Positions 15,271 to 31,009 of a stretch of 33,242 bases of DNA are shown here, piece by piece. The stretch's first letter is position 1; each line of letters starts with the position of its first letter. Origin of the DNA: Bacteroidales bacterium (GTDB lineage Bacteria; Bacteroidota; Bacteroidia; Bacteroidales; UBA3663); NCBI GenBank assembly GCA_030526445.1, contig JAUNCV010000004.1, forward strand, positions 390 to 33,631, read 5' to 3'. The position numbers and the translations under genes are program-made. The notes under the pieces were generated by a model. It did no database searches. It was not told the origin of the DNA and saw only the letters and a program-made list of their open reading frames with translations.

Positions 15271-15299
15271 AATTGCAATCTTATTGTTTAATTTTGCCG

Positions 15300-15405: not shown

Positions 15406-15441
15406 TTTGTTTGTCATTTCCAAAGAAACCCATTATCTTTG
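15406..15441 (+). promoter_or_regulatory. Candidate Bacteroides-type promoter for ssrA
   Basis: TTTGTTTG lies at 15406-15413 and TATCTTTG at 15434-15441, a 20-nt spacer. The mature tmRNA 5' end is at 15458. Confidence 0.5.
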
Positions 15442-15457: not shown

Positions 15458-15854
15458 GGGGCTGACTGGCTTTGACAGCGGGATGGGCCTTTGTGTAAGC
15501 ATGCAGTGAGACGTCACCTATCACTATAATCCACGATGGCGAAATATAATTGGCGAGACTAACTACGCTCTTGCTGCCTAATCGAAGTACAGTAGATTAC
15601 TGGCTTAATCGGCCGCCCAGGCGCGGCTGACAAGACATCACCCCAAGGTCGTTGTTCCGAGACCGAGGAACCGGTGGTGCAGATAAATCGGGAATAGTCT
15701 GTTGGCGGCCTCGAGTCGCAGATGAAACTTTAGAGGATAAGGAGTAACTTGGTGGTCCGGGTCTTGGTTGCTCCCGACAATTTAGGCCGGAATAAGCATG
15801 TAGAAAGCGCAGATGTCACCTGTTTGGACGAGGGTTCAAATCCCTCCAGCTCCA
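15458..15854 (+). ncRNA. ssrA: tmRNA (SsrA), about 397 nt
   Basis: The 5' end is GGGGCTGACTGGCTTTGACAGCGGG. The tag ORF GGC GAG ACT AAC TAC GCT CTT GCT GCC TAA (15552-15581) encodes GETNYALAA*. The 3' tRNA-like end is GGACGAGGGTTCAAATCCCTCCAGCTCCA, and its acceptor strand CAGCTCC pairs with the 5' GGGGCTG. Confidence 0.95.
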
Positions 15855-15867
15855 CTTCGTTTCACTT

Positions 15868-15893
15868 GGAGGGCTTTGAACCCTCCATTTTTC
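15868..15893 (+). terminator. Terminator hairpin after ssrA
   Basis: GGAGGG-ctttgaa-CCCTCC is followed by ATTTTTC. Confidence 0.7.
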
Positions 15894-15941
15894 ATTTTGC
15901 ATCTTTTAGATGCGTCCCTCCAGTTCTACTACACTACACAA

Positions 15942-15976
15942 CCTGAGGAATTTTCCCCTCGGGTTTTGTTTTTTTT
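15942..15976 (+). terminator. Second hairpin plus long T-tract
   Basis: CCTGAGG-aattttc-CCTCGGG (one G-U pair) is followed by TTTTGTTTTTTTT. Confidence 0.6.
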
Positions 15977-16171
15977 AACACACTTTGCTGCTCACAACAA
16001 ATAGCATTTCGAGACGGAAAAGCAAGAAAAATGAGACTATTTTTTATTTTTCGGTCATCATTTTGTTCATTAAAATATAAATACTTAATTTCGCGCCAAA
16101 ATTTAAATGTGAAGCAAGTGTACATATTTAATAATAATTGCATACTAAGTAACAGACTCCTTTCGACTATT

Positions 16172-17428
16172 ATGGCCGCAAGAAAATATTTGCTGTATGT
16201 ATTTTTATGGATGCTCTTCGGCACCCAACCGTTGACAGCACAAAGTTTCAATAGCAACACGTCGCACAATGACACGCTCAAATTCCATGAGCGCTTGTCG
16301 TTCCGTACCAACACCATCGATTGGCTCCTGCTCCGTCCGAACATTGGCATGGAGTTCGATCTTCGTGCAGGTGACTACAACAAGTGGACCATTGGCGTGG
16401 ATGCTCTCTACAACTGGAAAACCAAAGAGACCGATGTAAACCCTTACGTTTATGACATTATGCAGGTAACCTTAGAGGGCCGCAAGTACTATCGTACCCG
16501 CCGCCCAGACCGAGACCTGTATCCTGATGGCGTGGTAACCCGCGACACCAGCGTTCCTGCATTTGTGGGCTGGCTCAAATACATCACTCGCCTTGACAGA
16601 GCCAAAGCCCGCTCTTGGCGTGCTTACTACTGGGGTGCTTATGCTTCGGCCACTCAATACAGTTTCAAGTTTGGTGACACCGGCTACCAGGGCCCTGCTT
16701 ACAGCGTAGGCGCCTCGTTTGGTTATGGCATCCCACTCTACGTGCTGGGCAATGGAACCATCGACCTTGAGATTGGTGGCCGTATTGGTGCTGCTATCAC
16801 CAAATATGATGCCTACACCGTAGACTTTGAGGGTAACTGCTATCCATACTTGCCCGAGAAGAGCAAGGGATACCACTTCCTGCCCTATCCTGTCATTAAC
16901 GACTTGCACCTCTCATTGGTTTACCGCACTCGCTCAATCCGCAATAAGTATCGCAAGCCAAACTTCGCCAAGGAGAAAGAGATGATGGAGCGTCAGTATG
17001 AAATTGATGCACGCCATGACTCTATCCTCGAGGCAAGACGCCTGCGCAAAGAGGAGATGCGTAGCCAGGTAGAGATTGTAGGCAAAGCTAAGAAGGCTAA
17101 GAAACTGCGCAAGCAGCGTGCCGACTCGCTGGGTGTAGCACTCGATTCTATTCCACTTACACCTGAGGAGATCAAGGCAAAGGCTCTCATCGACAAACTG
17201 GAACAGCAGAAACTCGAGGAGCAGCAAAGAAAGAACGAACAAAAATTGTTACGCAAAAAAGAGAAAGAAGATAAGCGAGTAGCTGACAACCTTGCCACTA
17301 AGGAGGCCAAGATGGCTTCGGACGAGGCAAAAAAGGCCTCAAAAGAGGCTAAGAAGGCTGCCAAACAAGCAAAAAAAGCAGCCAAGAAGGCCAGCACTGA
17401 CGCTGACAGAAAGGAGATTGAACAATGA
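16172..17428 (+). CDS. DUF3575-like outer-membrane beta-barrel protein with a ~165-aa K/E/A-rich coiled-coil C-terminal tail (418 aa)
   Basis: The signal peptide is MAARKYLLYVFLWMLFGTQPLTAQ. FRTNTIDWLLLRPNIGMEFDL...WTIGVDALYNW...GASFGYGIPL...IDLEIGGRIGAAI shows an alternating beta-strand pattern like the shorter paralog at 23611. The tail includes KEAKKAAKQAKKAAKKAS. I chose the start at 16172, not the track's 16031. Confidence 0.75.
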   Translation: MAARKYLLYVFLWMLFGTQPLTAQSFNSNTSHNDTLKFHERLSFRTNTIDWLLLRPNIGMEFDLRAGDYNKWTIGVDALYNWKTKETDVNPYVYDIMQVTLEGRKYYRTRRPDRDLYPDGVVTRDTSVPAFVGWLKYITRLDRAKARSWRAYYWGAYASATQYSFKFGDTGYQGPAYSVGASFGYGIPLYVLGNGTIDLEIGGRIGAAITKYDAYTVDFEGNCYPYLPEKSKGYHFLPYPVINDLHLSLVYRTRSIRNKYRKPNFAKEKEMMERQYEIDARHDSILEARRLRKEEMRSQVEIVGKAKKAKKLRKQRADSLGVALDSIPLTPEEIKAKALIDKLEQQKLEEQQRKNEQKLLRKKEKEDKRVADNLATKEAKMASDEAKKASKEAKKAAKQAKKAAKKASTDADRKEIEQ

Positions 17429-18672
17429 GAACCAGACTTAACTATCTTTTGGGCGGAGGCCTGCTTCTCAGCTTAATGGCAGGAGCTTGCGACACCATTG
17501 GCGTTGATGTGTGCGAAGATGCACATCCACACATCTCAAAGCTCGCAGTCAGCTACACCTGGCCAGAAGAAATGAGCACAGGGAAGACACCTAATAAATG
17601 TTGGATTATTGCCAACAGACCAGCCGACCCGCTCAGATATCTCTTTGGCTGGTTCCCTACAGAAACCGCTTCGTTCTACGGACGAGAGATGGCTTATCTC
17701 AACTACGACACAACCGAGACAAAGAAAGCCTATTTCGATGCCGACTCTATCAAGTGGTTCGAAAACAAGGCAACTCTCTATGATGCGCTCGACCACTGCG
17801 GTGTAAGACTTGGCGACTACCAGATGCTCACAACCAACTGTGCATACTACTACGAAATAGATTCGCTCGAGCAGTTCTTCCACAATCATGAGATCTTCCC
17901 CAAAGACCTCTATGTGCGATATAACACCGAGACGGTACCCGATAGCATCGACCCAGCCCTTCGCGACTGGATGGACTTCAACCCACAGTATCCTTTTGTA
18001 AAAGATATAGGCCCAGTCTTCTTCGACCAGCAGCTTGTTTCGGCCGTAAGAGGTCAAAGCACCGAAGTGCACTTCTCGCCTAAGGTCATTTCGCAGAAGA
18101 TTGACCTGAAGTTCACAATTGCTTCGCAAAATGAGGAGGTGGTCATCGATTCCATTCGTGGCGAAATCTCAGGTGTGGTTCGAAGCAAGTCGCTCTTCAA
18201 AGGCTTCCTGAATATGGATGGCACCCAGTCGTGCCGCATGATATTCTCGACCCAAGTTCCTATTGACACGCTGCAAGGAACCAACACTCGCGTCTGGAGT
18301 TGCAACACCAGTCTCAACGTGCTGGGTCTGTGCGAACCAGCCAACGAGAAGATGCAGACAGGCCCTGGCATTGTTCACCTGGCTGCCTATGTGCACTATT
18401 ACAAGCCAGCCGACCCAGTCAAGGGCACTCCTGAACGTCTTGTAAAGCGCACCATCTTCTGGGGCATCAACCTCTATCAGGCGCTTAAGAAAAATCCGGT
18501 CACCAAGCAGACCGAAGATTTGTATCACCACGTTATTTCAAGCAGTCACGAGACAATTGTCATTCCAAACATCCTCAAAATCGACCTCAAGGACTTTGAC
18601 GATGATAAGCATATTGAGATCTGGCCTTCAGATCCAAATGGTGGTAATGGCGATTTTGATATCGAATTCTGA
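17425..18672 (+). CDS. Lipoprotein, possible FimB/Mfa2-like (DUF5119-like) pilus anchor subunit (415 aa)
   Basis: The lipobox is LSLMAGAC. KLAVSYTWPEEMS resembles the 'v.v.vdW' start of DUF5119/Mfa2-like proteins. There is no S-R-G cleavage motif. The ATG overlaps the upstream stop (ATGA). The functional call is tentative. Confidence 0.55.
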   Translation: MRTRLNYLLGGGLLLSLMAGACDTIGVDVCEDAHPHISKLAVSYTWPEEMSTGKTPNKCWIIANRPADPLRYLFGWFPTETASFYGREMAYLNYDTTETKKAYFDADSIKWFENKATLYDALDHCGVRLGDYQMLTTNCAYYYEIDSLEQFFHNHEIFPKDLYVRYNTETVPDSIDPALRDWMDFNPQYPFVKDIGPVFFDQQLVSAVRGQSTEVHFSPKVISQKIDLKFTIASQNEEVVIDSIRGEISGVVRSKSLFKGFLNMDGTQSCRMIFSTQVPIDTLQGTNTRVWSCNTSLNVLGLCEPANEKMQTGPGIVHLAAYVHYYKPADPVKGTPERLVKRTIFWGINLYQALKKNPVTKQTEDLYHHVISSSHETIVIPNILKIDLKDFDDDKHIEIWPSDPNGGNGDFDIEF

Positions 18673-18684
18673 AAATATTAATCA

Positions 18685-20013
18685 ATGAAAATAAATAAAC
18701 TGACATACCCACTTCCCGCTCTGTTGTCACTCTTGGTGGCAGCGTGCGTCGATACTTATCCCGGCATCACTGAGGATATGTCAGGCACCAACATTGTTGA
18801 CAGCGCTGGCATGAACGACACTGTGATGGTGCATGAGGAGTTCAAGCTCATCTCAGTGGGTATTAACGATCCATCTTATTATACTGTTTCGACCGACACC
18901 AGCCTCACATCGCGCGGCATGGGCAGTTTCGACTACTTGCGAAAAGACAGTCTGCGAAGCCTGATGTGGGATTCGGCCCGCTTCATGCTCTATGCTTTCC
19001 GTGACGATACCTTGGGCATCAACTTTAAAGTCACAAACAGCGAGGACTCTGCAGCCTGCCTGCTCGACAAGGTGCCTATGTGGGTGGCCGACCCAAGCAG
19101 CAACCTGCTCTCGTATGTCATTGACGAAGAGCACGACGGCCGACATCTCTGGATCAACAAGAACCCAGAAACTCCTTATCGCTTCTGGAGCTACTATATA
19201 GATAATGTGGACAGCCTTGTGGAGGAGCGCACCTCTGAGCACATCAAGCTCTCGTTCACCATCGATGGCTCTCAGGACATCCTTGCAGGTACTGCCGAAA
19301 TGACAACCAAGCAGTGGAATAAAGTCAAGAATGACGACAGCCTGAACACACTTTATACAAAGTATCTGCTTCAGGGTCGCCCAATGAGAAATCTCTACAG
19401 CACAACCTCTGCGCTGAATGACATTATTCCTATTATCAATTACAAGCATCAGCTGGTGCGCTTCAAGTTCGAGCTTTATCCTGGAAACAAGGAGTCGGAC
19501 AAGATGATCATCGATAGCATCAAAGTGCTGACCAGAACCCACGGACATTTGGTAGTTGCTTCGAACGAGAGCAAAGAATCGGTCTGCACTTTCGATGCCA
19601 CCCCAACTGAATGGGTCAACCTCCCTGAATGGAACAACAAGAGCACCCTCGACTCTGCTCGCTACATCAACCGATGGGATCCTAAATATGAGGTTGATGG
19701 CACCCGAGTATATCACAGAAAGTGCCTCAAGGTGGGCGAAAGCTTGTTGATTCCACCTACAGATTCGCTGCGCATTCAGCTCTTTGCTCGCCAGCAAATC
19801 GGCGACACTTTGGTTGATCCTTACCAGCACATCAATGGTGGCAACATCGTAACCATGCGCTATGCGAAAGGATTCAAGGCCGGCAATCTCTACACCATTC
19901 GTGTAGTTTTGTATGGCGAAAAACCATATACTGCCGACGCAGTCCTCTCTGGCTGGGAACCTGGTGTGGATATTGTTACAAATCCCGAAGACGAGAACTT
20001 CAAACCTTGGTAA
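18685..20013 (+). CDS. Fimbrillin-family (type V pilin-like) lipoprotein (442 aa)
   Basis: The lipobox is LLVAAC. It carries TSLTSR-GMG (Arg77), IDGSQDILAGTAE, YKHQLVRFKFELYPG and a C-terminal GNLYTIRVVLYG...LSGWEPG. These motifs are shared with the other three pilin-like genes here. Confidence 0.75.
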   Translation: MKINKLTYPLPALLSLLVAACVDTYPGITEDMSGTNIVDSAGMNDTVMVHEEFKLISVGINDPSYYTVSTDTSLTSRGMGSFDYLRKDSLRSLMWDSARFMLYAFRDDTLGINFKVTNSEDSAACLLDKVPMWVADPSSNLLSYVIDEEHDGRHLWINKNPETPYRFWSYYIDNVDSLVEERTSEHIKLSFTIDGSQDILAGTAEMTTKQWNKVKNDDSLNTLYTKYLLQGRPMRNLYSTTSALNDIIPIINYKHQLVRFKFELYPGNKESDKMIIDSIKVLTRTHGHLVVASNESKESVCTFDATPTEWVNLPEWNNKSTLDSARYINRWDPKYEVDGTRVYHRKCLKVGESLLIPPTDSLRIQLFARQQIGDTLVDPYQHINGGNIVTMRYAKGFKAGNLYTIRVVLYGEKPYTADAVLSGWEPGVDIVTNPEDENFKPW

Positions 20014-20035
20014 AGAATAAAGATATAACAACGCA

Positions 20036-22324
20036 ATGAATAGTAAATATCTTCTTATTTCGCTTATTGGCTTGGCCTTGACTACAGGCTGCTCTGACGA
20101 ACCACTTAGCTCGTCAGACAATCGTCCTGGCAACTCAAACCAGTCGGGCCCAATCATTGACGACAACGCCCCACAGCCCATCACCCTGAACATCGGAGGT
20201 CTGGGACTTAACACCAATGTTGAGTCTCGTGGCTTCGGCACTGTAGGTGACTTGAAGGGCAAAGAGGAGAATGTATGGCATGGAGAGAAGCTCTTTATCT
20301 ATGCTGTGAATCGTGGTGCCAAGGATTTTAGCCAGCCTTTTGTTGATGCCGATCAAGAGATTCCAACCTTCCTCAAGGGCGGTTTTCTGCAGGAATCGTG
20401 GTGCGGTGAGCCTGCTTCGGCCCCTTACGCCACCGACAATGGCAAGATCGAGTTCAACGATAGCGTTGCAAAATATAAATACTACCCACTCAATGGTGCC
20501 TATAACTTCATGGGCTATCATCTGGATGATGCAGAGATTCTCTCTTCGGGCATTGCAGCCGACACCACCGGAGCTATCGATATCAACTTCAAGATTGATG
20601 GCTCTCAGGATGTTATGACCGCACAGGCTCGACTGACACAGATGGATACTATCCGATTCATCAAATCTCTTATTATCAACGAGAAGTTGGATTCGGCTCA
20701 CTATTCACTTTACTATGACTCAGTGCGTCATAGACTCTCTACCAAGCTCTCTGCTGCCAACCGAGAGATTATTGAGAAAGAACTCACTATGCGCCACTAT
20801 AGCTCATATAGTAACCGCCGTGATGTAATGCCTAATCTGAACTTTAAGCACGAGCTCTCACGTATCACCTTCCAGGTAGTTGGCGGTGATGCGAACGCGG
20901 TTGTTCGTCTGAGCAATCGTCCAAAGATCAAGATGAACGCGTGGGTTCGCCAGCGTTACATGAAGGGCGATTTCTTTACTCATAATGGTGCCAACTACAT
21001 GGTAAGAACCGACATGCAGGACGCTTTGACTGAAGCTGAGCTCTTTGGCAACGAAAAGAACAAAAACAAGTTCCTGAAGTTGCTCAATTTCTCTCTCTCC
21101 GATTCTAAGAGCAAGGGCGATACCATTATGTATAAGAATGAGGTTTATAAGTTCATCTCGAAATACAATGGTGATGCTCCTACCTGGGAACAGCTCGAGA
21201 CAAGAATGAACAACATCACCAGCACCTTGTTGAAATTTAAGGCTGGTAAGAGCTACTACCGCGGCGAATGTGTGGTTGGCGCTAAAGACACCGTATGGAT
21301 TGTAGAGCACAGCATGAAGAATGTTAGCACATGGAATGCGCTGCGCGATAGCTGTATCCTCTTCCAGCAGGGTGTATTTGTTTCGAAAATCGAATTGCTC
21401 GATATGAAGGATGAGGCAACCATGCGCCTCACAACCGACTCGCTCAAGTTCATCCCATCGAACGACGAAACTGCAAGCACAAACACTTTTGTATTGAAGC
21501 AGCGTCCAACTAAGAACTTCCAGTATGGTGATTCGCTCGTTGAACTTCAGCCTGCAGGCCCTTCATTCACCCTTCAGGAGTATAACGCAGACCCAACCAA
21601 TGCAACACGTGTTGGTGAAAGCATGATGATTATGCCAGGTGAATCGAAACTTTTGGCCAACATCTACATCACCGAATATGTAGATAACCAGGGCAATTTG
21701 CTCGATGATGCCAACATGCTGGGCGACCATCGCACCAAGGTGTATAAGGGCACAAGCATCGTAGCAAACAGCAAGAAAAAGGATGCTAAATTCGAAGCTG
21801 GCAAGAGCTACACCGTGACCATCACCGCTTTTGCTATGCAGGGCATCGAGGTCAACACTGCACTGACTGCATGGGCCGCAGGTGGTTCGAGCGTTGTGGA
21901 TCCTGAGAAGCAGCTCTTCGATAGCTTGAAGACTGTTACCATGCCACCTGCATTCTATGGCATTTGTGACACTGTACCTGGAGCTAATTTCGACGTAACC
22001 AATGGCAAGGAATGGCGACCAGACGATAACAAGCAGACTGTAAGCTACACTACCAAGGGCGTACACTGGTTCGCTATCCATGATGGTTATAAAGTTACTA
22101 AGTGGGTTAACAAAGAAAATGAACGCGACTACCTCAATCCTGGCGAGGGATTGGAGAAGCAGCTGATTCAGACTGAGCACGTTTATAAGTTCTCTATCAA
22201 CATCAGTGCTACCCAGAAGAAGGAGTTCATCTATCGTCTATACTACACTGTTGACGATTCTGAACAGCATGATCCTTACACTCAGGAGAAGCGTACTTAT
22301 CTGGTCAATGTGGTACGCAAATAA
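20036..22324 (+). CDS. Large fimbrillin-family lipoprotein with internal repeats and a C-terminal extension; candidate tip/adhesin subunit (762 aa)
   Basis: The lipobox is LALTTGC followed by SDE. It carries NVESR-GFG (Arg65), IDGSQDVMTA, FKHELSRITFQVVGGD and KSYTVTITAFAMQG...LTAWAAGG, followed by about 138 extra residues. It is a paralog of the gene at 28350. Confidence 0.75.
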   Translation: MNSKYLLISLIGLALTTGCSDEPLSSSDNRPGNSNQSGPIIDDNAPQPITLNIGGLGLNTNVESRGFGTVGDLKGKEENVWHGEKLFIYAVNRGAKDFSQPFVDADQEIPTFLKGGFLQESWCGEPASAPYATDNGKIEFNDSVAKYKYYPLNGAYNFMGYHLDDAEILSSGIAADTTGAIDINFKIDGSQDVMTAQARLTQMDTIRFIKSLIINEKLDSAHYSLYYDSVRHRLSTKLSAANREIIEKELTMRHYSSYSNRRDVMPNLNFKHELSRITFQVVGGDANAVVRLSNRPKIKMNAWVRQRYMKGDFFTHNGANYMVRTDMQDALTEAELFGNEKNKNKFLKLLNFSLSDSKSKGDTIMYKNEVYKFISKYNGDAPTWEQLETRMNNITSTLLKFKAGKSYYRGECVVGAKDTVWIVEHSMKNVSTWNALRDSCILFQQGVFVSKIELLDMKDEATMRLTTDSLKFIPSNDETASTNTFVLKQRPTKNFQYGDSLVELQPAGPSFTLQEYNADPTNATRVGESMMIMPGESKLLANIYITEYVDNQGNLLDDANMLGDHRTKVYKGTSIVANSKKKDAKFEAGKSYTVTITAFAMQGIEVNTALTAWAAGGSSVVDPEKQLFDSLKTVTMPPAFYGICDTVPGANFDVTNGKEWRPDDNKQTVSYTTKGVHWFAIHDGYKVTKWVNKENERDYLNPGEGLEKQLIQTEHVYKFSINISATQKKEFIYRLYYTVDDSEQHDPYTQEKRTYLVNVVRK

Positions 22325-22382
22325 TGCTAACCAACAATCAGGTAACTAAAGTATAAGTCAAAACTGAATATATATTCTTAAA

Positions 22383-23609
22383 ATGAAGAAATATTTTCTC
22401 TTGGCAAGCATCGCCATGTTGTTTGCCTGTTGTAACGACGAACTCAACAACGCGAGCGAAATAGATCCTATCGTAGATGAGGAGGCATACTTGGACCCAG
22501 AACCTGTGGTTTTGGGAGCCTTCTCTGATGTTACCTTGTCAAGCCGTGCAACGATTCTCGAAAAATGGGGTGCAGATGACAGCATAGGTATATTTGGCTT
22601 GTGCAGTAAAGCAACACTCAAAGGCGCTGCTTCCTGGGAGGATACCGTCAAAATCGAAAATCACCCAGACAACCAGCCTGCTATTCTTAAGAATGTTCGT
22701 GCTTTGCCTGTTGACACCACAATTACATTTGGCAAAAACGTGGATTATTACTATCCTCGTCAGTCAACACGTAACTATCGTTTCTACGGCTACTATCCTT
22801 ATAGCTATGCCTATTCTTGGGACAAGGATGCAAAGCAATATTATGTAACTGGCAAATTTGACGGACAAACTGATATTCTTGCAGGCACGTCAGAGTACAC
22901 TAGTGAACAGAAGTGGAATGCAAAGTTCATTCGCGAACAGAAGCAAAAAGGCGATAGCAGCAAATTTGCTCCCAAGATTGAGTTCAAGCACATGACTGCT
23001 CAGTTGCAAGTTTTGCTTAAACAAGGAGATAGCTTCGATGCATCAAAAGAGTATTGCCAGATTGACAGCATTTATTTGATGCTGCCCAACAAATACAAAT
23101 TGATTATTGCGGACGAAGCAAAAGCCACATACAATTATACAAGCAAAGTGCTCCCACAATCAATCATATTTGACAAAAATGCTACAAAAGACACATGTTG
23201 TGTTTTGAAACCATATGAAGATATCACAGCTAGTGGTGCTAAGATTGGCAACTATAATAAGTACAAAACCAACAAGTATGTCATTGCTTGGCCAAAGGAT
23301 CATGAGAAAATTCAGAATGATTCGGTTTACAATGATTTGATATTTGTTCCCGCAGGCACATCAGAATATACTATTAACATCATCTTCAAACCTTTCACTG
23401 GTTCTGACGGCAAACCAATAGTATATAAAACAAGTGCAAAAATCGTAAGTAATAAATTCACTGGCAATCCTTCCACATTCAAGGCTGGCACAGCCTATCG
23501 TGTTGTTCTAACCATCAATGGTTTGTCAAGCACAAGAGCAACTGTAGATGTGGCAAAGTGGCAAAACGGTGGATCTGCCGAAAGCGATTGTACCCCAAAA
23601 ATCAAATAA
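22383..23609 (+). CDS. Fimbrillin-family (type V pilin-like) lipoprotein (408 aa)
   Basis: The lipobox is AMLFAC(C) followed by NDE. It carries TLSSR-ATI (Arg55), DGQTDILAGTSE, FKHMTAQLQVLLKQGD and GTAYRVVLTINGL...VAKWQNGG. Confidence 0.75.
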   Translation: MKKYFLLASIAMLFACCNDELNNASEIDPIVDEEAYLDPEPVVLGAFSDVTLSSRATILEKWGADDSIGIFGLCSKATLKGAASWEDTVKIENHPDNQPAILKNVRALPVDTTITFGKNVDYYYPRQSTRNYRFYGYYPYSYAYSWDKDAKQYYVTGKFDGQTDILAGTSEYTSEQKWNAKFIREQKQKGDSSKFAPKIEFKHMTAQLQVLLKQGDSFDASKEYCQIDSIYLMLPNKYKLIIADEAKATYNYTSKVLPQSIIFDKNATKDTCCVLKPYEDITASGAKIGNYNKYKTNKYVIAWPKDHEKIQNDSVYNDLIFVPAGTSEYTINIIFKPFTGSDGKPIVYKTSAKIVSNKFTGNPSTFKAGTAYRVVLTINGLSSTRATVDVAKWQNGGSAESDCTPKIK

Positions 23610-23610
23610 T

Positions 23611-24183
23611 ATGCTGAACCTATTTAAAAAACGTGTTCTGCTCCTGATGCTCTGCCTGACTGCTTGGTGTGGTCAGTGCCTCTATGCGCAGAAGGTTGCC
23701 ATCAAGATGGATGCAGCCAAGGCTTCTATGTGGATGCCAAACCTCGGTGCTGAGTTCGCTATTGGTGACAGTTACAGTTTCGATGTATCGGTATTCGGCT
23801 CGAACAAGATCTGGAATCAGGACTGGAAGATGTTTGCCGTTCAGCCAGAGTTCCGTTGGTGGATCAGTGGCCGTCAGATGGCTCGCTTCTATGTGGGTGT
23901 TACTGCCATTGCCATGCACTACAACATCGACTACTCAAAGTATGAGCACAAGGGAGACCTTGCCGGCGGCGGTTTGACCTTTGGTTACTCTTGGTACATC
24001 TCTCCTCGCTGGTCTGTTGAGGCATACGGCGGCTTCGGTGCTATCGCTTACAAAGAAAACAGATATAAGAACAGAAAGATATACGAAGACTACAATCCTG
24101 AAAAGAAGGAATATGGCAATGCCAGCGGCTGTATGCTGGTACCTGCTAAGTTGGGCGTCTCTTTCTCTTACATCCTGAAATAA
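23611..24183 (+). CDS. DUF3575-like outer-membrane beta-barrel protein (190 aa)
   Basis: The signal peptide is MLNLFKKRVLLLMLCLTAWCGQCLYAQ. KMDAAKASMWMPNLGAEFAIGDSYSFDVSVFGSNKIWN...FAVQPEFRWWISGR...GGGLTFGYSWYISPRWSVEAYGGFG fits the family pattern. I chose the start at 23611, 1 nt after the upstream stop. Confidence 0.8.
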   Translation: MLNLFKKRVLLLMLCLTAWCGQCLYAQKVAIKMDAAKASMWMPNLGAEFAIGDSYSFDVSVFGSNKIWNQDWKMFAVQPEFRWWISGRQMARFYVGVTAIAMHYNIDYSKYEHKGDLAGGGLTFGYSWYISPRWSVEAYGGFGAIAYKENRYKNRKIYEDYNPEKKEYGNASGCMLVPAKLGVSFSYILK

Positions 24184-24211
24184 TTGAGATAATACGTTTT
24201 TTGTTGATACA

Positions 24212-26467
24212 ATGACAAAAATTGATTTGAAAATATTCACCCTATTGCTGAGTTGGCTTCTTCCAGTTCAGTTGCTTGCACAGGCATTCATCTACCCTTC
24301 AGGCACACTGCGTAACGAGAAGGGCGAGCCTTTCGATGCTTCGGTTTATCCTCGCGTACTCTTTTATGACACTGAGGCTGAAGCAAAGGAGGACTATGAG
24401 CGTCTGAACGCCAAACCACCTAAGCAGCCCCTCACCGACCATGTCGTTGAGGTGGACGAAGCTGGCTATTTTGCCATTGAAGATGGTGTGAGCGAAGCAG
24501 GTTGGCTTATCTTCTTTGTAGATAACGGCACTCCTAAACTCGAGAAAATCAATGGCCGCAAGAAGATAGATGTGAAAATGTCGGGCGCTATCAACCTGAA
24601 AGGCGTCACCATTGACCATACCCGCCCAGACAAACCCGTGGAGATTGTTCCAGTGGTATTCGACAAATGGATCAGAATGCAGAACATGATTCCTGTGCCA
24701 CAAGAGATGGCTCAGTCGAACTATCGTCTCATTTTCCAGCCTTATCTGCTCGAATATGCTGATGGCAAGAACGCAGACACCATTGAATGGTGCCGCCCTG
24801 TTGTGGCTGATGGTAGCGAGTTTCATGCCACACAGAAGAGACGCATGGGCTTTGATATGCGCAACGACAAACTGAACAACTACCTCTCTCCAGAGAACTT
24901 GGCCAGCGGCAATATGGTGATGTGGAGAGACTCGGTTGAGATGCCAAACCCAAGAAGCGGTAAGTATCGTGTATTCGGCATCACCAACATGGAGGATTAT
25001 AGCAGCACCGTGTATTATGACAACTATGTCATGGTTCGCGGTTTGCGTCGCCCACTCAAATATCTTGAGGTAGCTCCTTGCACTGTCGATCTCGACCCAA
25101 TGAAGCAAAACCCCAACACGGGCAAATATCTCTATGTACGCAATCCACAGAAGGAGTCGCACTCGTCAGACAACGAGTTGCACCTCACCTTCCTCTATAA
25201 CTCTCCTCAGCTTGACCCTGTAAATCCGAAGAATGAACAGGAGATGAACCTGCTGATTTCGAGCCTGACCGAAGTATTCCGTACTAAGGGCGCCAGTGTG
25301 CGTGAGGTTCGTTTTGTGGGTATTTCTTCACCTGAAGGTAGCTATCAGGGCAATATTTCGCTCTCAAGAGCACGTATTGCAACCGTCAAGAATGCAGTTG
25401 TAAGCCGTCTGTCGGCTATGGGTCGTGCCAACTTTGTAGCACCAGAAGAGGCAGGTGTGGCACCTTGGGATTCGGTAGTACCACTGCTGCAGAAAATGGG
25501 CTATTACGAAACAGCCCGCAAGGTAGAAGAGATTTGCAACAGTACTACCAACCACGATATGCGCTCGAACCGCATTGCGGCATTGGATGACTATGAGAGT
25601 GTAGTCAAGAGCGTATTCCCACAGTTGCGTAAGGTAACCTGTCACTGCCGCTTCGAGATTTTCCGTAAGCCAACCGACAAGGAGATTCTCCAAAGCTACA
25701 ACACAGACCCAGCCTATCACAATGGCACAGTCGAAGTGCCTCTCTATGAATATGGTCGTCTTTTTGAGTTGCTCAAGGATTCTGTTCCTGTAAGAGAAAT
25801 GGAGGCGCTCTACAAGCGAGCCTTGGACCTTTCTTTCAAACTCAAGCGTCCTTGGCACTTGCCTGCTAACCTGCTGGCAACCTCTTATCTGCAACGCGAT
25901 ACAGTTGATTTGAACGTACTTCGACCATTCCTTGACTTCAAGGGTAAGATCAACCAATACTCTGACTTGAAGAATATGGAGGAGCTTTGGGCCAACCAGA
26001 TGCTGATGTATATGAAGGCATACGAAGGCGATACAGCCCGCTTCATGGCTCAGGAACTGGAGAAAGCAGCAGATGTGGATATTGACAACTACGATTTGCC
26101 TCTCAGTTTTGCCAACCAGGCAGAGTTCCAGACCAACCAGCGCGTATTGACAACATTGCTCAATTCGAGCCCTCAGAATAAGGTTGTGATGTTCCTGGCT
26201 ATGTCTGATGACTCTTACGACCAGTCGGCCTTAGAGGCTTGGAAAGATCTTGACCAGAGCAAAGCCGTAACCTGGTATTTACGCTCGGTAATTGAGAGCC
26301 GCATCGACCCAGAATGTGAAAATGAAGAGGGACACGAAGCATTACTCAGATGCAGGGAGCTTGACGAGAGATTCTATGAAGAGAGCGAATTTGATGCCGA
26401 TCTTTCAGGTCATCTCGTAAGCTTTGCCAAAGGCCCTTGGCTGGCTAAACAAAAATCAGCACAATAA
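24212..26467 (+). CDS. DUF3868/OmpA-like domain protein with a long helical C-terminal region (751 aa)
   Basis: The signal peptide ends LLAQA. The central segment LHLTFLYNSPQLD...VRFVGISSPEGSYQGNISLSRARIATVKNAV matches the OmpA-C-like signature (G-x-[TS]-x-x-x-GS...N-x-x-LS-x-x-R). A gene in this position after DUF3575 is typical of Bacteroidales fimbrial loci. Confidence 0.7.
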   Translation: MTKIDLKIFTLLLSWLLPVQLLAQAFIYPSGTLRNEKGEPFDASVYPRVLFYDTEAEAKEDYERLNAKPPKQPLTDHVVEVDEAGYFAIEDGVSEAGWLIFFVDNGTPKLEKINGRKKIDVKMSGAINLKGVTIDHTRPDKPVEIVPVVFDKWIRMQNMIPVPQEMAQSNYRLIFQPYLLEYADGKNADTIEWCRPVVADGSEFHATQKRRMGFDMRNDKLNNYLSPENLASGNMVMWRDSVEMPNPRSGKYRVFGITNMEDYSSTVYYDNYVMVRGLRRPLKYLEVAPCTVDLDPMKQNPNTGKYLYVRNPQKESHSSDNELHLTFLYNSPQLDPVNPKNEQEMNLLISSLTEVFRTKGASVREVRFVGISSPEGSYQGNISLSRARIATVKNAVVSRLSAMGRANFVAPEEAGVAPWDSVVPLLQKMGYYETARKVEEICNSTTNHDMRSNRIAALDDYESVVKSVFPQLRKVTCHCRFEIFRKPTDKEILQSYNTDPAYHNGTVEVPLYEYGRLFELLKDSVPVREMEALYKRALDLSFKLKRPWHLPANLLATSYLQRDTVDLNVLRPFLDFKGKINQYSDLKNMEELWANQMLMYMKAYEGDTARFMAQELEKAADVDIDNYDLPLSFANQAEFQTNQRVLTTLLNSSPQNKVVMFLAMSDDSYDQSALEAWKDLDQSKAVTWYLRSVIESRIDPECENEEGHEALLRCRELDERFYEESEFDADLSGHLVSFAKGPWLAKQKSAQ

Positions 26468-26490
26468 ATTAACAAAAAAACGAAACAGCT

Positions 26491-28329
26491 TTGAAGCGTA
26501 GATTACTATATAGTATGACCGTATTGGCCTGCTGCCTCATGGGCAGCGGGGCAACTCACGCGTCGGCACAAGAGGCCGATTCAACCACTACTGCAAAGAA
26601 AACGCCTAAAGGCTTCAATGCGCTTGAGTATGTGAACCAAGGCATCTGGAGAGGCAACAACCTGCCTTTCTCGAACAAGCAGTGGCATGACAATATTTAT
26701 ATATTTGCCGGTGTGGGTGCAGAGGGTCTTTCGAACAACAAGCTCGACCTCAGTCTTGGTACAATGACTTATGTGGGCATTGGTAAAGATGTAACAAAGA
26801 ACCACACCCTGCGTCTGGCCTTTGACTACACCAACAACCGCCGCACCATTGGCGACCCGCTGGATAGATGGGGCGTTTCACTGGCACACCTTTTCAATAT
26901 CTCGGGCTACACTATGGGCTACGACCCCAACCGCCGCATTGAGTTCTCAACTCTTGTGGGTGGAGGTTATCAGCACTCAGACTTAGGTAGCAAGAGCGCC
27001 TCTGGTTTCAGAGGATGGGTAGGCTTTCAGGCAAAATTTCACGCACAGCGCCACATAGATTTGGCTTTGGAGCCCTTCCTGGGCATCAGCACCTACAAGT
27101 TGATGATGGCAGAGAGACCTGACCGCCTTTACCAGCTCACTTATGGTGCCAGCTTTAATGTGAGATATAAATGGCATCACGACCAGTTTGAATATCACAA
27201 TCGTGCCAGCCATCTTATCTATGGCAACTTCTATTCGGCCAGCATGGGTGCAGCCATGCCTATCTCAGATCTTGAGGGTTTTGGTGTAGGTCCGACAGCT
27301 GCCATTGGTTTGGGTCGATGGATGGTACCGGGTTTGGGTGTCAAACTGACATTCACTGGAGCAAACATGACCTGGCACAAGGCCGACTATTCGGCTGAGG
27401 TGACCGAAGACAAGCCATACGTTCGCAACGAGAATACCAGTTATCTGGGTGGACGTCTGGAGTTGGTTTGGGAGCCAACCATCTTCTTCCATCGATATAA
27501 CGAATACAAGAACTTCCAGCTTCGTTTCCTGGCAGGTGGCGAGTTCGGATATATGGAGAAGAAGAATTACAACCGACCCATCACTGGCATGTATGGCGGC
27601 CCTACTGCAGCCATTCAGTTTGCTTATCGTTGCGAAGAGGACAAACTGCTTTATATTGAGCCTCGCTTCACCATGGCCAACTATCAGGTGCCTTATGAGC
27701 GCATCAAGGCATACAAACATTTTGCAGACAACATGATAAGCCTGAATGTGGGTATGGAGGTGAACGAACCTGTTATCTCGCGCAGAAAGGTGAACGCCTA
27801 CCTTCGACCCTATTTCCGCAAGATGTTACTCTTCAATTTGGAAGGCGGCATCAATGTCCCCATCTTCCCTACTCACTATGCTAAAAACATCAAGCCTGGC
27901 ACCTATCTTGGTTTGATTGCTCATTATCACTTGACACCGGAACATGGTTTTGCTGTTCATGCCGACTACAACCACCTCAACCTGGACATGGAGAAGGGTA
28001 AGCAGTCTGTACACTTGGTATCGTTGACTCACCAATATCGATTGGATGCAACCAACGCCATCTTAGGCTATGACCCCAAGCGCAGATATCATCTGGCTGT
28101 CTTTGCCGGCCCGACAGTGAGCTACAGAGTAAAACTCGACAGCAATCAGTCAGATAAGATTTATGTAGGTGCAGAAACAGGATTCCAGATTAAGTATAAC
28201 TTCACAGAATACTTTGGTTTCTACCTGTCACCACAAATCAAACTTTATCCAACCGACATTCTCCAGAACGGAAGTGACGGCCTCGACAGAATTGTTAACA
28301 TCGCTGCCGGCGTGCAGTTCAAATTGTAA
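26491..28329 (+). CDS. Predicted outer-membrane beta-barrel protein built of three ~180-aa repeated modules (612 aa); probable TTG start
   Basis: The TTG at 26491 gives MKRRLLYSMTVLACCLMGSGATHASAQ, which has a positively charged n-region. The ATG at 26515 would lack that region. Recurrent motifs are GYDPNRRIEFSTLVGGGY / YKNFQLRFLAGGEFGY / GYDPKRRYHLAVFAGPTVSY, and GWVGFQAKFH / AAIQFAYR / AETGFQIKYN. Confidence 0.7.
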   Translation: MKRRLLYSMTVLACCLMGSGATHASAQEADSTTTAKKTPKGFNALEYVNQGIWRGNNLPFSNKQWHDNIYIFAGVGAEGLSNNKLDLSLGTMTYVGIGKDVTKNHTLRLAFDYTNNRRTIGDPLDRWGVSLAHLFNISGYTMGYDPNRRIEFSTLVGGGYQHSDLGSKSASGFRGWVGFQAKFHAQRHIDLALEPFLGISTYKLMMAERPDRLYQLTYGASFNVRYKWHHDQFEYHNRASHLIYGNFYSASMGAAMPISDLEGFGVGPTAAIGLGRWMVPGLGVKLTFTGANMTWHKADYSAEVTEDKPYVRNENTSYLGGRLELVWEPTIFFHRYNEYKNFQLRFLAGGEFGYMEKKNYNRPITGMYGGPTAAIQFAYRCEEDKLLYIEPRFTMANYQVPYERIKAYKHFADNMISLNVGMEVNEPVISRRKVNAYLRPYFRKMLLFNLEGGINVPIFPTHYAKNIKPGTYLGLIAHYHLTPEHGFAVHADYNHLNLDMEKGKQSVHLVSLTHQYRLDATNAILGYDPKRRYHLAVFAGPTVSYRVKLDSNQSDKIYVGAETGFQIKYNFTEYFGFYLSPQIKLYPTDILQNGSDGLDRIVNIAAGVQFKL

Positions 28330-28349
28330 TCTCAGTAAAAAGTATCAAT

Positions 28350-29567
28350 ATGCTTAAAAAATACAACCGTCTGTTCGGCGCCTTCTGCGCTGTTTCAGCC
28401 CTCATGAGCCTCTCGACAGCATGTTCTTCAGACAACAATCTGGAGAACGATATGGAGAATCTTGAGGAAAGAGAAGCTATCCAATTGAACTATACATGCC
28501 CTACTCTTGAAGTTGAGAGTAGAGGTTACGGCAGTGTAGGTCCATACATTGGCAAGGATTCCATAATCTGGAACAAGTATCCTGTTTATGTTTATTCTAT
28601 CTTCAGAGAGGCAGATGATTTCAACTTCGATGTTCAGGACGAAGATCATCTTGTGCCAACATTCCTGTTAGGTGGCAAAGACTCTCTTTATATGGGTCAC
28701 AGAGGTACTGTATATTCAAAAGAAACAAAAGGCAGCATCTCTTTCTCAAATACCACATATTACCCAATGGTGGGCACATACCGCTTTATGGGTTATCACG
28801 TCGATGATGCCAAAACTACAGCAGCAAAAAAGATTGAAAATGCCTCAAAACTGCAGATTGATGTAGAGTATGATGGCACTCAGGATATCATGGTGGCTAC
28901 TGACACCAAATATTATTCGACACAAACTGCACGAAAGGGACAGATTCCGAACCTTGTCTTCAAACATCAGCTTGCCCGTCTCAATGTTTACGTTGTTGCA
29001 GGTGATACCTCGGCTGTTGTTAGAAACCCCAAGGACACTCTTGGCATCAAGACCAAAATGACCAAAGCATACAACAATGATAAAGATAAAGTATTTGTAA
29101 AGAAACAGGGTGTATTCCTTGATTCTCTCTTTATCAACGACCAGTTCAGCAAGGGTTATCTTTTGGTTTCTGCCGATTCTTGTGCATGGCGCTTTACAAC
29201 TGACAAGAAGGCCAACTTTAAGATGGCAATGGACGCAAAAATGATTAAGGACAACTTGAATGGCGGACAGATAACCAAGGTTCCTCAGTATTTAGGAGAG
29301 GTTCTTGTAAAGCCTGAGACCAGTTACTATACTGATTTTAACATCTCAGAATACGTTAATCAGATTCCTGATACAATTGCTCCAGACAAACGTCATAGAA
29401 AATACAGCAAAATCAAGATTGCTCCACCTAAGGGAAAGACCAGATTCTCGCCCGGTTACAGCTACGACGTGAAGATTACTGTTTATTCAATGGAGAATAT
29501 TGCAGTAACGGCACAGTTGACCCCATGGAACCCTGGAGGTAGCACAACGATTGATCCAGACAATTAA
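28350..29567 (+). CDS. Fimbrillin-family (type V pilin-like) lipoprotein (405 aa)
   Basis: The lipobox is LSTAC followed by SSDNNLEND. It carries LEVESR-GYG (Arg58), YDGTQDIMVA, FKHQLARLNVYVVAGD and YSYDVKITVYSMEN...LTPWNPGGSTTIDPDN. Confidence 0.75.
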   Translation: MLKKYNRLFGAFCAVSALMSLSTACSSDNNLENDMENLEEREAIQLNYTCPTLEVESRGYGSVGPYIGKDSIIWNKYPVYVYSIFREADDFNFDVQDEDHLVPTFLLGGKDSLYMGHRGTVYSKETKGSISFSNTTYYPMVGTYRFMGYHVDDAKTTAAKKIENASKLQIDVEYDGTQDIMVATDTKYYSTQTARKGQIPNLVFKHQLARLNVYVVAGDTSAVVRNPKDTLGIKTKMTKAYNNDKDKVFVKKQGVFLDSLFINDQFSKGYLLVSADSCAWRFTTDKKANFKMAMDAKMIKDNLNGGQITKVPQYLGEVLVKPETSYYTDFNISEYVNQIPDTIAPDKRHRKYSKIKIAPPKGKTRFSPGYSYDVKITVYSMENIAVTAQLTPWNPGGSTTIDPDN

Positions 29568-29586
29568 ATAATCATTCCATAAATAA

Positions 29587-29626
29587 TTAGGGCAGCCTCA
29601 TTTGAGACTGCCCTAACTTATTTTAT
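29587..29626. terminator. Bidirectional terminator between the pilus locus and the trpB2-like gene
   Basis: A perfect 9-bp stem TTAGGGCAG (29587-29595) / CTGCCCTAA (29608-29616) is flanked by AT-rich T/A runs on both sides. Confidence 0.75.
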
Positions 29627-29638: not shown

Positions 29639-31009
29639 TTACTTGATAATCTGCTCCAACTCGCTTACATTCTTCTGAACATCCTCATCGCTCACCTCAT
29701 AGTCGTGAAGCGAACCAGAAAGATACTGATCGTAAGCGCTCATATCGATAAGACCATGGCCTGAGAGATTGAAGAGAATTACCTTCTCCTCACCAGTCTC
29801 CTTGCACTTCTCTGCCTCACGAATAGCTGCTGCAATAGCGTGGCATGACTCAGGAGCAGGAATGATGCCCTCAGCCTTGGCAAAGATAAGACCCGACTTG
29901 AAGGTCTCGGTCTGCTGAATATCAACAGCCTCCATATAACCATCCTTCAAAAGCTGAGAGATGATAACACCAGCACCATGGTAACGAAGACCACCTGCAT
30001 GGATGTTGGCTGGCATGAAGTTGTGACCCAAGGTGTACATAGGGAGCAATGGAGTAAGACCAGAGAGATCACCAAAATCATACTGGAACACACCACGGGT
30101 AAGCTTAGGACATGACGCAGGCTCTGCTGCAATGAAGCGAGTCTTCTTGCCATCCTTGATGTTGTGGCGCATGAATGGGAACGAAATACCACCGAAGTTT
30201 GAACCGCCACCGAAGCAGCCAATCACAACATCTGGATATTCGCCTGCCATCTCCATCTGCTTTTCTGCCTCAAGGCCGATGATGGTCTGATGCAAAGCTA
30301 CGTGGTTGAGTACAGAGCCCAATACATACTTACAGTTAGGAGTAGTCATGGCCAACTCAACTGCCTCAGAAATAGCTGTACCCAAAGAACCCTGGTTCAT
30401 AGGGTCCTTGGTGAGGACATCCTTACCAGCACGGGTTGACATAGAGGGCGAAGGAGTTACCTGTGCACCAAAGGTCTGCATAATAGAGCGACGATAAGGC
30501 TTCTGCTCGTACGAAATCTTTACCTGATATACAGCAGCCTCAATGCCAAATACTCGGGCAGCATAAGAAAGAGCTGCACCCCACTGACCAGCACCTGTCT
30601 CGGTAGTGACATTAGTGATACCTTCCTGCTTGCAGTAGTAAACCTGAGCAAGCGCCGAATTGAGTTTATGAGAACCAATAGGGCTCACACTCTCATTCTT
30701 GAAGTAAATGTGGGCAGGAGTACCCAAAGCCTTCTCCAAACCATAGGCACGAACCAATGGAGTAGAACGATAGTATTTATAAAGATCACGCACCTCTTCT
30801 GGAATATCAATCCATGCATCGGTGGTGTTGAGTTCCTGATGGGCCAATTCCTTGGCGAAAAGTGGATAGAAATCCTCCTCCTTCATAGGCTGCTTGGTAG
30901 CAGGGTTAAGTGGAGGAAGTGGCTTGTTAGGCATATCTGCCTGAATGTAATACCACTGGCGAGGGATATCCTCTTCTGCCAGGAAGTAACGCTTCTGTTT
31001 TGTGCTCAT
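29639..31009 (-). CDS. TrpB-like PLP-dependent enzyme (tryptophan synthase beta chain 2 family, 456 aa)
   Basis: YFKNESVSPIGSHKLNSA contains the PLP lysine. TETGAGQWGAALSYA and GCFGGGSNFGG are present, together with the long N-terminal extension typical of TrpB2. Confidence 0.88.
   Translation of the reverse strand: MSTKQKRYFLAEEDIPRQWYYIQADMPNKPLPPLNPATKQPMKEEDFYPLFAKELAHQELNTTDAWIDIPEEVRDLYKYYRSTPLVRAYGLEKALGTPAHIYFKNESVSPIGSHKLNSALAQVYYCKQEGITNVTTETGAGQWGAALSYAARVFGIEAAVYQVKISYEQKPYRRSIMQTFGAQVTPSPSMSTRAGKDVLTKDPMNQGSLGTAISEAVELAMTTPNCKYVLGSVLNHVALHQTIIGLEAEKQMEMAGEYPDVVIGCFGGGSNFGGISFPFMRHNIKDGKKTRFIAAEPASCPKLTRGVFQYDFGDLSGLTPLLPMYTLGHNFMPANIHAGGLRYHGAGVIISQLLKDGYMEAVDIQQTETFKSGLIFAKAEGIIPAPESCHAIAAAIREAEKCKETGEEKVILFNLSGHGLIDMSAYDQYLSGSLHDYEVSDEDVQKNVSELEQIIK

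Follow-up and report, generated by a model that had tools for sequence, protein, structure and literature searches.

A probable type V pilus operon of a Bacteroidales bacterium that co-encodes DUF3575, long PgmA-like and candidate poly-8 multibarrel proteins

In the gut and the mouth, type V pili (FimA/Mfa1 class) are among the major adhesins of Bacteroidota. It is unexplained how these pili keep their hold on the envelope through no more than one anchor subunit's lipid, and what the accompanying fimX/pgmA-type genes do. That DUF3575 and OmpA-like genes go together with type V pilus genes has been known since 2004–2010. PG2130 (FimX) and PG2131 (a 60-kDa OmpA-type protein) have been listed as a Bacteroidales signature pair (PMC1887533), and in 2010 two members of the Mfa-like fimbrial operon BT1062-BT1068 of Bacteroides thetaiotaomicron, BT1064 and BT1066, were noted to be related to PgmA and FimX (PMC2954217). 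Nagano et al. (2012) found that fimA alone makes fimbriae in a strain without the whole fim cluster; fimX and pgmA are dispensable for FimA polymerisation in Porphyromonas gingivalis, and PgmA fractionates with the outer membrane (PMC3436787). The same paper cites a report that inactivation of fimX and pgmA abolished or decreased fimA transcription (Nishikawa 2004). PgmA has been “suggested to be the usher”, with a function “not fully characterized” (PMC7482747, citing Nagano 2012, J Oral Biosci), and a structural paper of 2026 ascribes the surface export of pilins to an “unknown lipoprotein sorting mechanism” (PMC13655056). The poly-8 multibarrel proteins, found only in Bacteroidetes, were described by Solan et al. 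in 2021, with no genomic context or partner (PMC8346858). In the literature, DUF3575 and DUF3868 are otherwise mere names in expression or proteome tables. We describe here a nine-gene locus that brings these elements together. It lies in a stretch of 33,242 nucleotides (nt) of a Bacteroidales bacterium (assembly GCA_030526445.1, contig JAUNCV010000004.1, positions 390 to 33,631 of the forward strand), hereafter the window, and had been singled out from its sequence in an earlier reading (the original prediction) as a pilus-like locus with its own outer-membrane components.

The locus is probably the operon for a Bacteroidota type V pilus. Its pilus genes are accompanied by an envelope module that we read as a split OmpA, a wall tether supporting the base of the pilus and not a conduit for pilins; this reading stands, in our judgment, midway between doubt and acceptance. 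The + strand of positions 16172–29567 carries nine open reading frames (ORFs), g1 to g9 (Table 1), at the coordinates first proposed. The successive junctions (-4, 12, 22, 58, 1, 28, 23 and 20 nt) also agreed exactly with the original prediction; they presuppose starts at 16172 for g1, at 23611 for g6 and at a TTG codon (26491) for g8. The ORF of g1 is open from 16031, the start at 16172 yielding a proper signal peptide, and the gene caller of the protein database chose an alternative ATG start (26515) for g8. Type I signal peptides ending in AQ were found in g1, g6, g7 and g8, and L-x-x-C lipoboxes, kept in the orthologues, in g2, g3, g4, g5 and g9. Transcription of g1–g9 as a single unit is likely.

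In sequence, four of the lipoproteins (g3, g4, g5 and g9) have the features by which PMC13655056 and PMC2954217 characterise type V pilins; the latter also notes a conserved Trp for the type V pilin fold. Their fimbrillin-like character, part of the original prediction, was upheld by the Mfa_like_1 family for g5 and g9, by a match below the cut-off for g4 and by paralogy for g3, which had no direct Pfam match and is related to g4 (2.8e-9), g9 (1.1e-8) and g5 (2.3e-6). The similarity between g4 and g9 was the strongest (5.8e-27). All four proteins, together with all their orthologues in five related contigs, have an [ST]R[GAS] site 35–60 residues past the lipid Cys, acidic residues right behind this Cys and a C-terminal W..GG motif. 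Pilins of this class are built from two transthyretin-like beta-sandwich domains with C-terminal donor strands. Acidic residues at this position match the surface-export signal of Bacteroidota lipoproteins, and therefore indicate a general export route rather than an operon-encoded pore.

The largest of these proteins, g4, contains a conserved insertion at residues ~295–440 (~20918–21356 in the window), consisting of three motifs of ~45 amino acids (aa) that resemble carbohydrate-binding modules of the CBM5/12 type. Each motif follows the pattern (K/P)G(D/E)x..Y..x..Y....W, with a Pfam CBM_5_12 match that lies below the cut-off (E = 0.0066), and the insertion is kept in all six g4 orthologues. 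An extension of ~130 aa follows the pilin C-terminal motif. On account of the CBM5/12-like motifs and this extension, g4 is the best candidate tip adhesin, the motifs suggesting a glycan-binding tip pilin. In related operons, one to five small pilin genes occupy the position of g5, and a pilin gene at the position of g9 is present in contigs L005 and L006 and absent from L002.

The lipoprotein g2 had no match in Pfam or in the sequences of the Protein Data Bank (PDB). Its family profile nevertheless aligned with its positional counterpart in the operon of locus L088 (99.5% probability, E = 2.5e-23), and the L088 protein is a member of DUF5119 (PF17145; 7.6e-11). The original description of g2 as “Mfa2/DUF5119-like” is thus borne out for DUF5119. 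In the hhalign comparison with the Mfa2 alignment, similarity was limited to the N-terminal 33 columns (17%, E = 0.0014) and was not significant, so that the profiles lend no support to membership of the Mfa2/FimB family. One Mfa2 protein matches DUF5119 weakly. In g2, a second conserved Cys lies 8 residues past the lipid Cys, a double-Cys N-terminus being a hallmark of Mfa2 homologues (PMC2954217), and no cleavage-type [ST]R[GAS] site was found in the protein. As a DUF5119-type lipoprotein without an Arg site, g2 is likely to be the anchor or terminator subunit.

Both g1 and g6 belong to DUF3575 (PF12099), as originally proposed, with scores of 47.3 and 125.2 bits, respectively, for a gathering cut-off of 21.1. 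We compared g6 and g7 with the fim locus of Porphyromonas gulae, retrieved with a P. gingivalis FimA query; the P. gulae fimA product is 94% identical to this query, and a fimA primer pattern had no match among the genome contigs. In P. gulae, the gene before pgmA encodes FimX, a DUF3575 protein (5.4e-77) with a weak match to the autotransporter beta-domain; PgmA has weak matches to DUF3868, OmpA and tetratricopeptide repeats (TPR), and FimB is an Mfa2 protein. The DUF3868 matches lay below the cut-off, both for PgmA (4.6e-4) and for one short PgmA-like protein (5.6e-4). The g6 protein is 28% identical to P. gulae FimX (BLASTP, E = 6e-20), and g6-g7 and fimX-pgmA have the same order, adjacency and strand; by these comparisons, g6-g7 is a fimX-pgmA-type pair. 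In the second DUF3575 protein, g1, the barrel region is interrupted by an insertion, and the C-terminus is a K/E/A/R-rich tail of ~165 aa. Its residues 4–251 aligned with the full DUF3575 alignment (hhalign, 93%, E = 3e-7), the tail is kept in the orthologues (55–165 aa), and the protein is 40% identical to the product of the first gene of L088.

The protein encoded by g7 is a long PgmA-like form. Its AlphaFold2 (AF2) model contains, in order, an N-terminal beta-sandwich resembling the N-terminal extension (NTE) of SusC and carboxypeptidase-regulatory domains, a beta region of low confidence, an OmpA_C-like domain with the motif FVGISSPEGSYQGNISLSRARI, and C-terminal helical TPR-like repeats. 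The mean predicted local distance difference test (pLDDT) score was 58, with the domains at 70–89. In Foldseek searches, the OmpA_C-like domain matched 4rha, 5nhx, 3td3, 5u1h and 6top with a probability of 1.0 and target-normalised template-modelling (TM) scores of 0.52–0.68, the scores for OmpA C-terminal domains being 0.6–0.68; the model also matched the C-terminal domain of PorE and the NTE of a SusC transporter (TM 0.85). The predicted domain thus has the alpha/beta fold of OmpA_C. At the sequence level, matches to OmpA_C were found in relatives only, below the cut-off; remote g7 relatives have matches to CarbopepD_reg_2 and TPR and weak matches to OmpA. Of the earlier label “DUF3868/OmpA-like”, the OmpA part is retained on the basis of the fold and the DUF3868 part could not be reproduced, PF12984 having no match to g7 at E ≤ 10 and none among 10 remote g7 relatives. 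Eight close relatives were found in a set of 5.8 billion proteins, and the g7 profile matched 1351 representative clusters, including 264 with E ≤ 1e-30.

Residues 370–389 of g7 contain the OmpA-type motif GISSPEGSYQGNISLSRARI. In nine family members, Arg388 is invariant and the Asp position is occupied by an invariant Ser373-Pro374 (TD -> SS-P); these positions are those that we take, matching them by eye, to correspond to the Asp and Arg of Escherichia coli OmpA. The PgmA protein of P. gulae has the same SPEG as the g7 family, which suggests a changed ligand specificity in the branch comprising both. The relation between g7 and PgmA is weak and partial: in the hhalign comparison of the g7 profile with P. 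gulae PgmA (71%, E = 3.8e-5), the similarity covered the OmpA-like region, with a shared SPEG..N..LS..R motif.

The three modules that the original prediction gave to g8 were confirmed, internal repeats being detected between modules 1 and 3 (4.6e-10) and between modules 2 and 3 (3.3e-7). The AF2 model (mean pLDDT 73.9, predicted TM score [pTM] 0.55) has 24 predicted strands in three sets of eight, which account for most of the chain and are joined by short loops. Relatives contain two, three, four, five or six modules, and g8 matched OMP_b-brl weakly (5.5e-5). This architecture fits the poly-8 multibarrel proteins, each module being a putative closed barrel. A single barrel of 22–24 strands was unsupported (pTM 0.55): the model had only local strand similarity to large barrels, with a TM of ~0.15 and a root-mean-square deviation of ~25 Angstrom relative to 22-strand barrels, and could not be superposed on barrels of 14–22 strands. 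An usher of the PapC/FimD type was likewise unsupported, there being no Pfam match and no usher among the 50 best Foldseek matches listed, and the repeats being 3 x 8. Nor are the modules copies of DUF3575 (hhalign probability <1%). Searches of PDB sequences with single sequences and profiles (g2, g3, g5, g7, DUF3575 and g8) returned nothing significant, and no family names were obtained from NCBIfam.

The gene order is shared with other genomes, and runs from a tailed DUF3575 gene, through a g2-like gene and the pilin genes, to a short DUF3575 gene, a long g7-like gene and a poly-8 gene. This full architecture was found in five contigs of the lineage of the window (L001, L002 and L005–L007), the g7 proteins of which are 42–66% identical, and, at a greater distance, in three further lineages (L088/L089; L092, which is a metagenome-assembled genome from NCBI; and L095). 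It is therefore present in at least four divergent lineages, with g7 profile E-values of 1e-156 to 1e-49. The g6-g7-g8 junctions are of 1–28 nt here, and 4-nt gene overlaps occur in L002 and L007. The proposal of a type V pilus-type operon co-encoding outer-membrane and peptidoglycan-binding-type proteins is supported, and the synteny is conserved. A metagenome scan with the DUF3575 alignment gave more than 568 loci. The 80 that were kept group into 22 clusters (80% identity), of which 21 were informative; in 15 of these, a gene of the g7/PgmA family adjoins the DUF3575 gene. Two classes can be distinguished. Genes for short PgmA-like proteins (430–510 aa) have bona fide pilin genes (Mfa2, FimA, Fimbrillin_C) downstream in eight of the ten loci tested. 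Long g7-like genes are followed by a poly-8 gene, and thus form a triad (DUF3575, long PgmA-like, poly-8). The co-occurrence of DUF3575 and fimbrillin genes is not, then, a peculiarity of this strain.

The triad also occurs without nearby pilin genes, in four other lineages (L016, L017, L022 and L090/L091). Its neighbours are heparinase-like, DUF5690, porin O/P and GH28 genes in L016, genes for SusC/D, histidyl-tRNA synthetase and a P-type ATPase in L022, and genes for a hybrid kinase and a C10 peptidase in L017. The presence of the triad in four lineages without any pilin gene means that it is not “dedicated” to pili. The original prediction of a dedicated pilus platform (a pore, an anchor or a tether) thus survives as a tether or anchor, loses the word dedicated, and is unlikely to hold for an export pore.

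Some neighbourhoods of the triad deserve a description of their own. In L090 (2397–8018) and L091 (588–5457), a stand-alone triad encoding a DUF3575 protein, a CarbopepD_reg/OmpA/TPR protein and a poly-barrel protein of 760 aa lies directly 3' of a gene for an extracytoplasmic function (ECF) sigma factor; just downstream are an aquaporin gene and a division and cell-wall cluster (rsmH, ftsL, a penicillin-binding protein gene, murE and mraY). In L018 (456–7941, - strand), and similarly in L066 (643–5472), an operon by an integrase gene encodes a DUF3575 protein, a short OmpA-like protein with weak DUF3868 similarity, a lipoprotein peptidase of the clostripain family (C11) and a DUF5029 lipoprotein. 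The triad lies a few kilobases away, divergent to this operon and behind a LuxR-type membrane regulator gene. Arg-specific processing is a possible role of this C11 peptidase.

Taken together, these features can be arranged into a model of the pilus and its base. The pilins g3, g4, g5 and g9 would be exported by the Sec and Lol systems and flipped to the surface by the general route for lipoprotein surface export. An Arg-specific protease, none of which is encoded within the window, would then cut them at [ST]R|[GAS], allowing polymerisation by strand exchange, with g4 as the tip adhesin and g2 as the anchor or terminator. The proteins g1, g6 and g8 would be small outer-membrane barrels and g7 a periplasmic OmpA_C-like/TPR-like protein. 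The barrels g6 and g8, and perhaps g1, would hold g7 as a peptidoglycan-binding subunit, an arrangement amounting to a split OmpA; it would fasten the outer membrane to the cell wall and thereby organise, or mechanically support, the base of the pilus, and the charged tail of g1 may serve as an additional spacer in the periplasm. We favour parts of the tether type because of the OmpA_C-like fold of g7, its similarity to the C-terminal domain of PorE, the TPR matches of its relatives and the fractionation of PgmA with the outer membrane. In the type IX secretion system, peptidoglycan is bound by the C-terminal domain of PorE. A support rather than a conduit is indicated by the 8-strand modules of g8, the assembly of FimA without fimX and pgmA, the generic acidic motif behind the lipid Cys and the existence of the triad without pilins.

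Several points count against this model. The argument at this locus is built from sequences and predicted structures, and the overall confidence of the g7 model is low. The canonical diaminopimelate-binding Asp is replaced in g7, so that its binding to peptidoglycan is uncertain. That DUF3575 proteins are barrels is suggested by their size and by the weak autotransporter beta-domain match of FimX, and the three putative separate barrels of g8 are proposed from its sets of strands. The triad stands alone in four lineages, where its role may be unrelated to pili, and the lowered fimA transcription reported for fimX and pgmA mutants hints that these genes act in regulation rather than mechanically. 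The altered Asp and the low model confidence, in particular, hold our confidence in the split-OmpA tether at about the halfway mark.

Other explanations were weighed against the same observations. The barrels might constitute a dedicated export or usher platform, by which the pilins cross the outer membrane or flip within it, g7 acting as their adaptor in the periplasm. The genes are co-operonic in a synteny conserved in several lineages, DUF3575/PgmA-type pairs mostly precede pilin genes, how type V pilins are exported to the surface is still unexplained (PMC13655056), as the original prediction had stated, and PgmA has itself been proposed as the usher (Nagano 2012, J Oral Biosci, cited in PMC7482747). 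Nevertheless, the strands of g8 fall into 8-strand modules and the DUF3575 proteins are of a similar size. Eight-stranded barrels have no lumen for a folded or an unfolded protein. There is also no resemblance to the 24-strand ushers of the PapC/FimD type, the triad is also found where pilin genes are absent, a generic acidic motif follows the lipid Cys of the pilins, and fimA suffices for fimbriae in P. gingivalis without the whole fim cluster (PMC3436787); we therefore regard an export platform as very unlikely. A different possibility is that two unrelated systems lie side by side, g6-g7-g8 being a general envelope module without functional ties to the pilus genes. The unrelated neighbourhoods of the stand-alone triads (L016, L022, L017 and L090/L091) would fit such a juxtaposition, but the triad is found at the same place in the pilus operons of four lineages with g7 proteins far apart, a pilin gene lies 3' of the triad here and in L005 and L006, and the shorter FimX-PgmA pair is mostly linked to pili. 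This explanation is unlikely, although less so than the export platform.

Two further roles were judged improbable. The envelope proteins might feed back on the expression of the pilus genes instead of serving as structural components. This would account for the effect of fimX and pgmA inactivation on fimA transcription (Nishikawa 2004, cited in PMC3436787), and stand-alone triads are found beside genes for an ECF sigma factor (L090) and a LuxR-type membrane regulator (L018 and L066). However, the reported effects may be polar within the operon, no signalling domain was found with Pfam in g1, g6, g7 and g8, and the window contains no regulator gene next to the locus; we give sensing or regulation little credence. 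Finally, g8 and perhaps the DUF3575 proteins might be surface adhesins, acting through their outer loops alongside the pilus. Solan et al. proposed avidity or adhesion for the poly-8 proteins of gut Bacteroides and Prevotella (PMC8346858), and co-expression with an adhesive pilus would be consistent with this. The predicted loops of g8 are, however, short, with strands forming most of the chain, and the strict pairing with a periplasmic OmpA_C-like protein points inward, making an adhesive function scarcely probable. The split-OmpA tether remains the reading that we prefer.

The usher idea for PgmA has been raised and weakened. The present evidence does not single these proteins out as the pore that is still missing for pilin export, which should be sought elsewhere. 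Four elements appear to be new. They are the long PgmA-like family itself; its strict pairing with poly-8 barrels in a triad; the two genomic contexts of this triad, which give the poly-8 barrels a genomic context; and the composite operon, which includes a tailed DUF3575 gene as its second of this family and a subunit of the DUF5119 type. The locus ties three orphan groups (DUF3575, PgmA-like OmpA/TPR and poly-8 proteins) into one conserved gene set. More tentatively, the DUF3575 barrel, the long PgmA-like protein and the poly-8 protein might form a widespread, undescribed envelope complex of Bacteroidota, a multi-barrel split OmpA, recruited by several lineages together with the tailed DUF3575 protein as the basal platform holding type V pili in the envelope. 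Such a complex, if real, would at once provide FimX/PgmA, DUF3575 proteins and poly-8 barrels with a function; we consider this broader view less likely than not, and clearly less secure than the tether proposed for the locus itself.

Table 1. Features of the locus and of its borders, with positions in the window.
Feature	Position	Strand	Evidence
g1, DUF3575 family of putative small outer-membrane barrels, 418 aa	16172..17428	+	Pfam DUF3575 1.9e-12; type I signal peptide
g2, divergent DUF5119-type lipoprotein, 415 aa	17425..18672	+	Family-profile comparison
g3, fimbrillin-like lipoprotein, 442 aa	18685..20013	+	Paralogy; conserved TSR|G site; C-terminal W motif
g4, large fimbrillin-like lipoprotein, 762 aa	20036..22324	+	Mfa_like_1 2.3e-4 (below cut-off); ESR|G site
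g5, fimbrillin-like lipoprotein, 408 aa	22383..23609	+	Mfa_like_1 4.1e-14, full length, above cut-off; SSR|A site; C-terminal W motif
g6, FimX-like DUF3575 protein, 190 aa	23611..24183	+	Pfam DUF3575 2.3e-36
g7, secreted long PgmA-like form (OmpA_C/TPR type), 751 aa	24212..26467	+	AF2 model; Foldseek; Pfam matches of relatives
g8, predicted outer-membrane protein, three tandem modules of ~190 aa, poly-8 multibarrel type	26491..28329	+	Repeats; AF2
g9, fimbrillin-like lipoprotein, 405 aa, downstream of g6-g7-g8	28350..29567	+	Mfa_like_1 2.6e-7, above cut-off; ESR|G site; C-terminal W motif
AT-rich leader between the tmRNA terminator and g1	15977..16171	+	195 nt; promoter not identified
Terminator-type hairpin common to g9 and the convergent gene 29639-31009	29581..29623	+	dG -20.8 kcal/mol, z = -5.4

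The borders of the locus are marked by strong hairpins. Downstream, the hairpin shared with the convergent gene, which encodes a pyridoxal phosphate enzyme, was matched in stability by 0 of 200 shuffled sequences; it was skipped by a simple terminator scanner because its T-run is weak. Upstream, a hairpin and T-run were confirmed at 15940–15976, and constitute the terminator of the transfer-messenger RNA (tmRNA) gene, being directly 3' of it. The claim that terminators occur only at the ends of the locus is correct for strong hairpins and does not extend to weak ones, as the simple scanner reported eight terminator-like sites with short stems (5–7 bp) on the + strand inside the locus. A renewed pattern search of the leader gave the same outcome as the original prediction, with no canonical TAnnTTTG -7 box; sequences with one mismatch (TCATTTTG at 16058, TAATTTCG at 16086 and others) occurred at about the frequency expected by chance. 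An invertible promoter in the leader was rejected, as there were no convincing inverted repeats. The G+C content of the locus (46.9%) differs little from that of the whole window (49.0%).

The tmRNA gene upstream of the locus (15458–15855, + strand) encodes the tag peptide GETNYALAA. It is preceded, 17 nt upstream, by the canonical Bacteroidota -7 box TATCTTTG (15434–15441) and followed by two hairpins, at 15867–15887 and 15940–15965. Further upstream, the neighbours on the opposite strand (7863–15321) include genes for a beta-ketoacyl synthase (14044–15321), an MMPL-family membrane protein (10251–12788) and an oxidoreductase of the FAD/amine-oxidase type (8642–10132), a cluster that may serve lipid or pigment biosynthesis. 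An ORF of 469 aa (18853–20262, - strand) lies opposite g3 and the beginning of g4; most likely it merely reflects how codons are used in the sense genes. Long ORFs also overlap on opposite strands at 1829–3607 (-) and 1850–3502 (+); the 592-aa product of the former had no Pfam match.

Among described systems, the Porphyromonas fim cluster (fimX-pgmA-fimA-fimB-fimC-fimD-fimE) is similar to the locus in that a DUF3575 gene is followed by an OmpA-like/TPR gene, in one cluster with lipoprotein pilins, which have lipoboxes and Arg sites, and an Mfa2-type subunit. The pair heads the cluster in Porphyromonas, whereas it lies in the middle or 3' part here; g7 is longer than PgmA (751 versus 490 aa), with an NTE/carboxypeptidase-regulatory-like N-terminus and no detectable DUF3868. 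The locus also has an extra DUF3575 gene, with a charged tail, at its head and a poly-8 gene, its pilins are of the Mfa_like_1 family rather than the FimA families, and its anchor candidate is of the DUF5119 type, not Mfa2. The BT1062-BT1068 operon is likewise an Mfa-type pilus operon with relatives of PgmA and FimX; it is set apart by its description, the accessible text of PMC2954217 reporting neither a poly-8 gene nor a long PgmA-like form. Like the proteins of Solan et al. (2021), g8 has tandem 8-strand modules in one chain, three here and two to six in relatives, variable in number and found in gut-type Bacteroidota; the likeness is one of module architecture, and the g8-type gene always lies behind DUF3575 and long PgmA-like genes. 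The PapC/FimD ushers share with g8 the setting of an outer-membrane beta-barrel in a pilus operon and, by chance, a total of 24 strands. They differ in having no sequence or fold match to g8, the strands of which are arranged as 3 x 8 repeats (two to six sets in relatives), and no plug, periplasmic usher domains or chaperone gene is present here. With the tethers OmpA, Pal and PorE, g7 shares a predicted OmpA_C-like fold and, with PorE of the type IX secretion system in particular, the combination of carboxypeptidase-regulatory-like, TPR and OmpA_C-like parts. By contrast, the barrel and the OmpA_C-like domain are here encoded as separate polypeptides; in addition, g7 is not a lipoprotein and the canonical Asp is replaced. 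An 8-strand barrel and an OmpA_C-like domain would together correspond to OmpA split over two genes.

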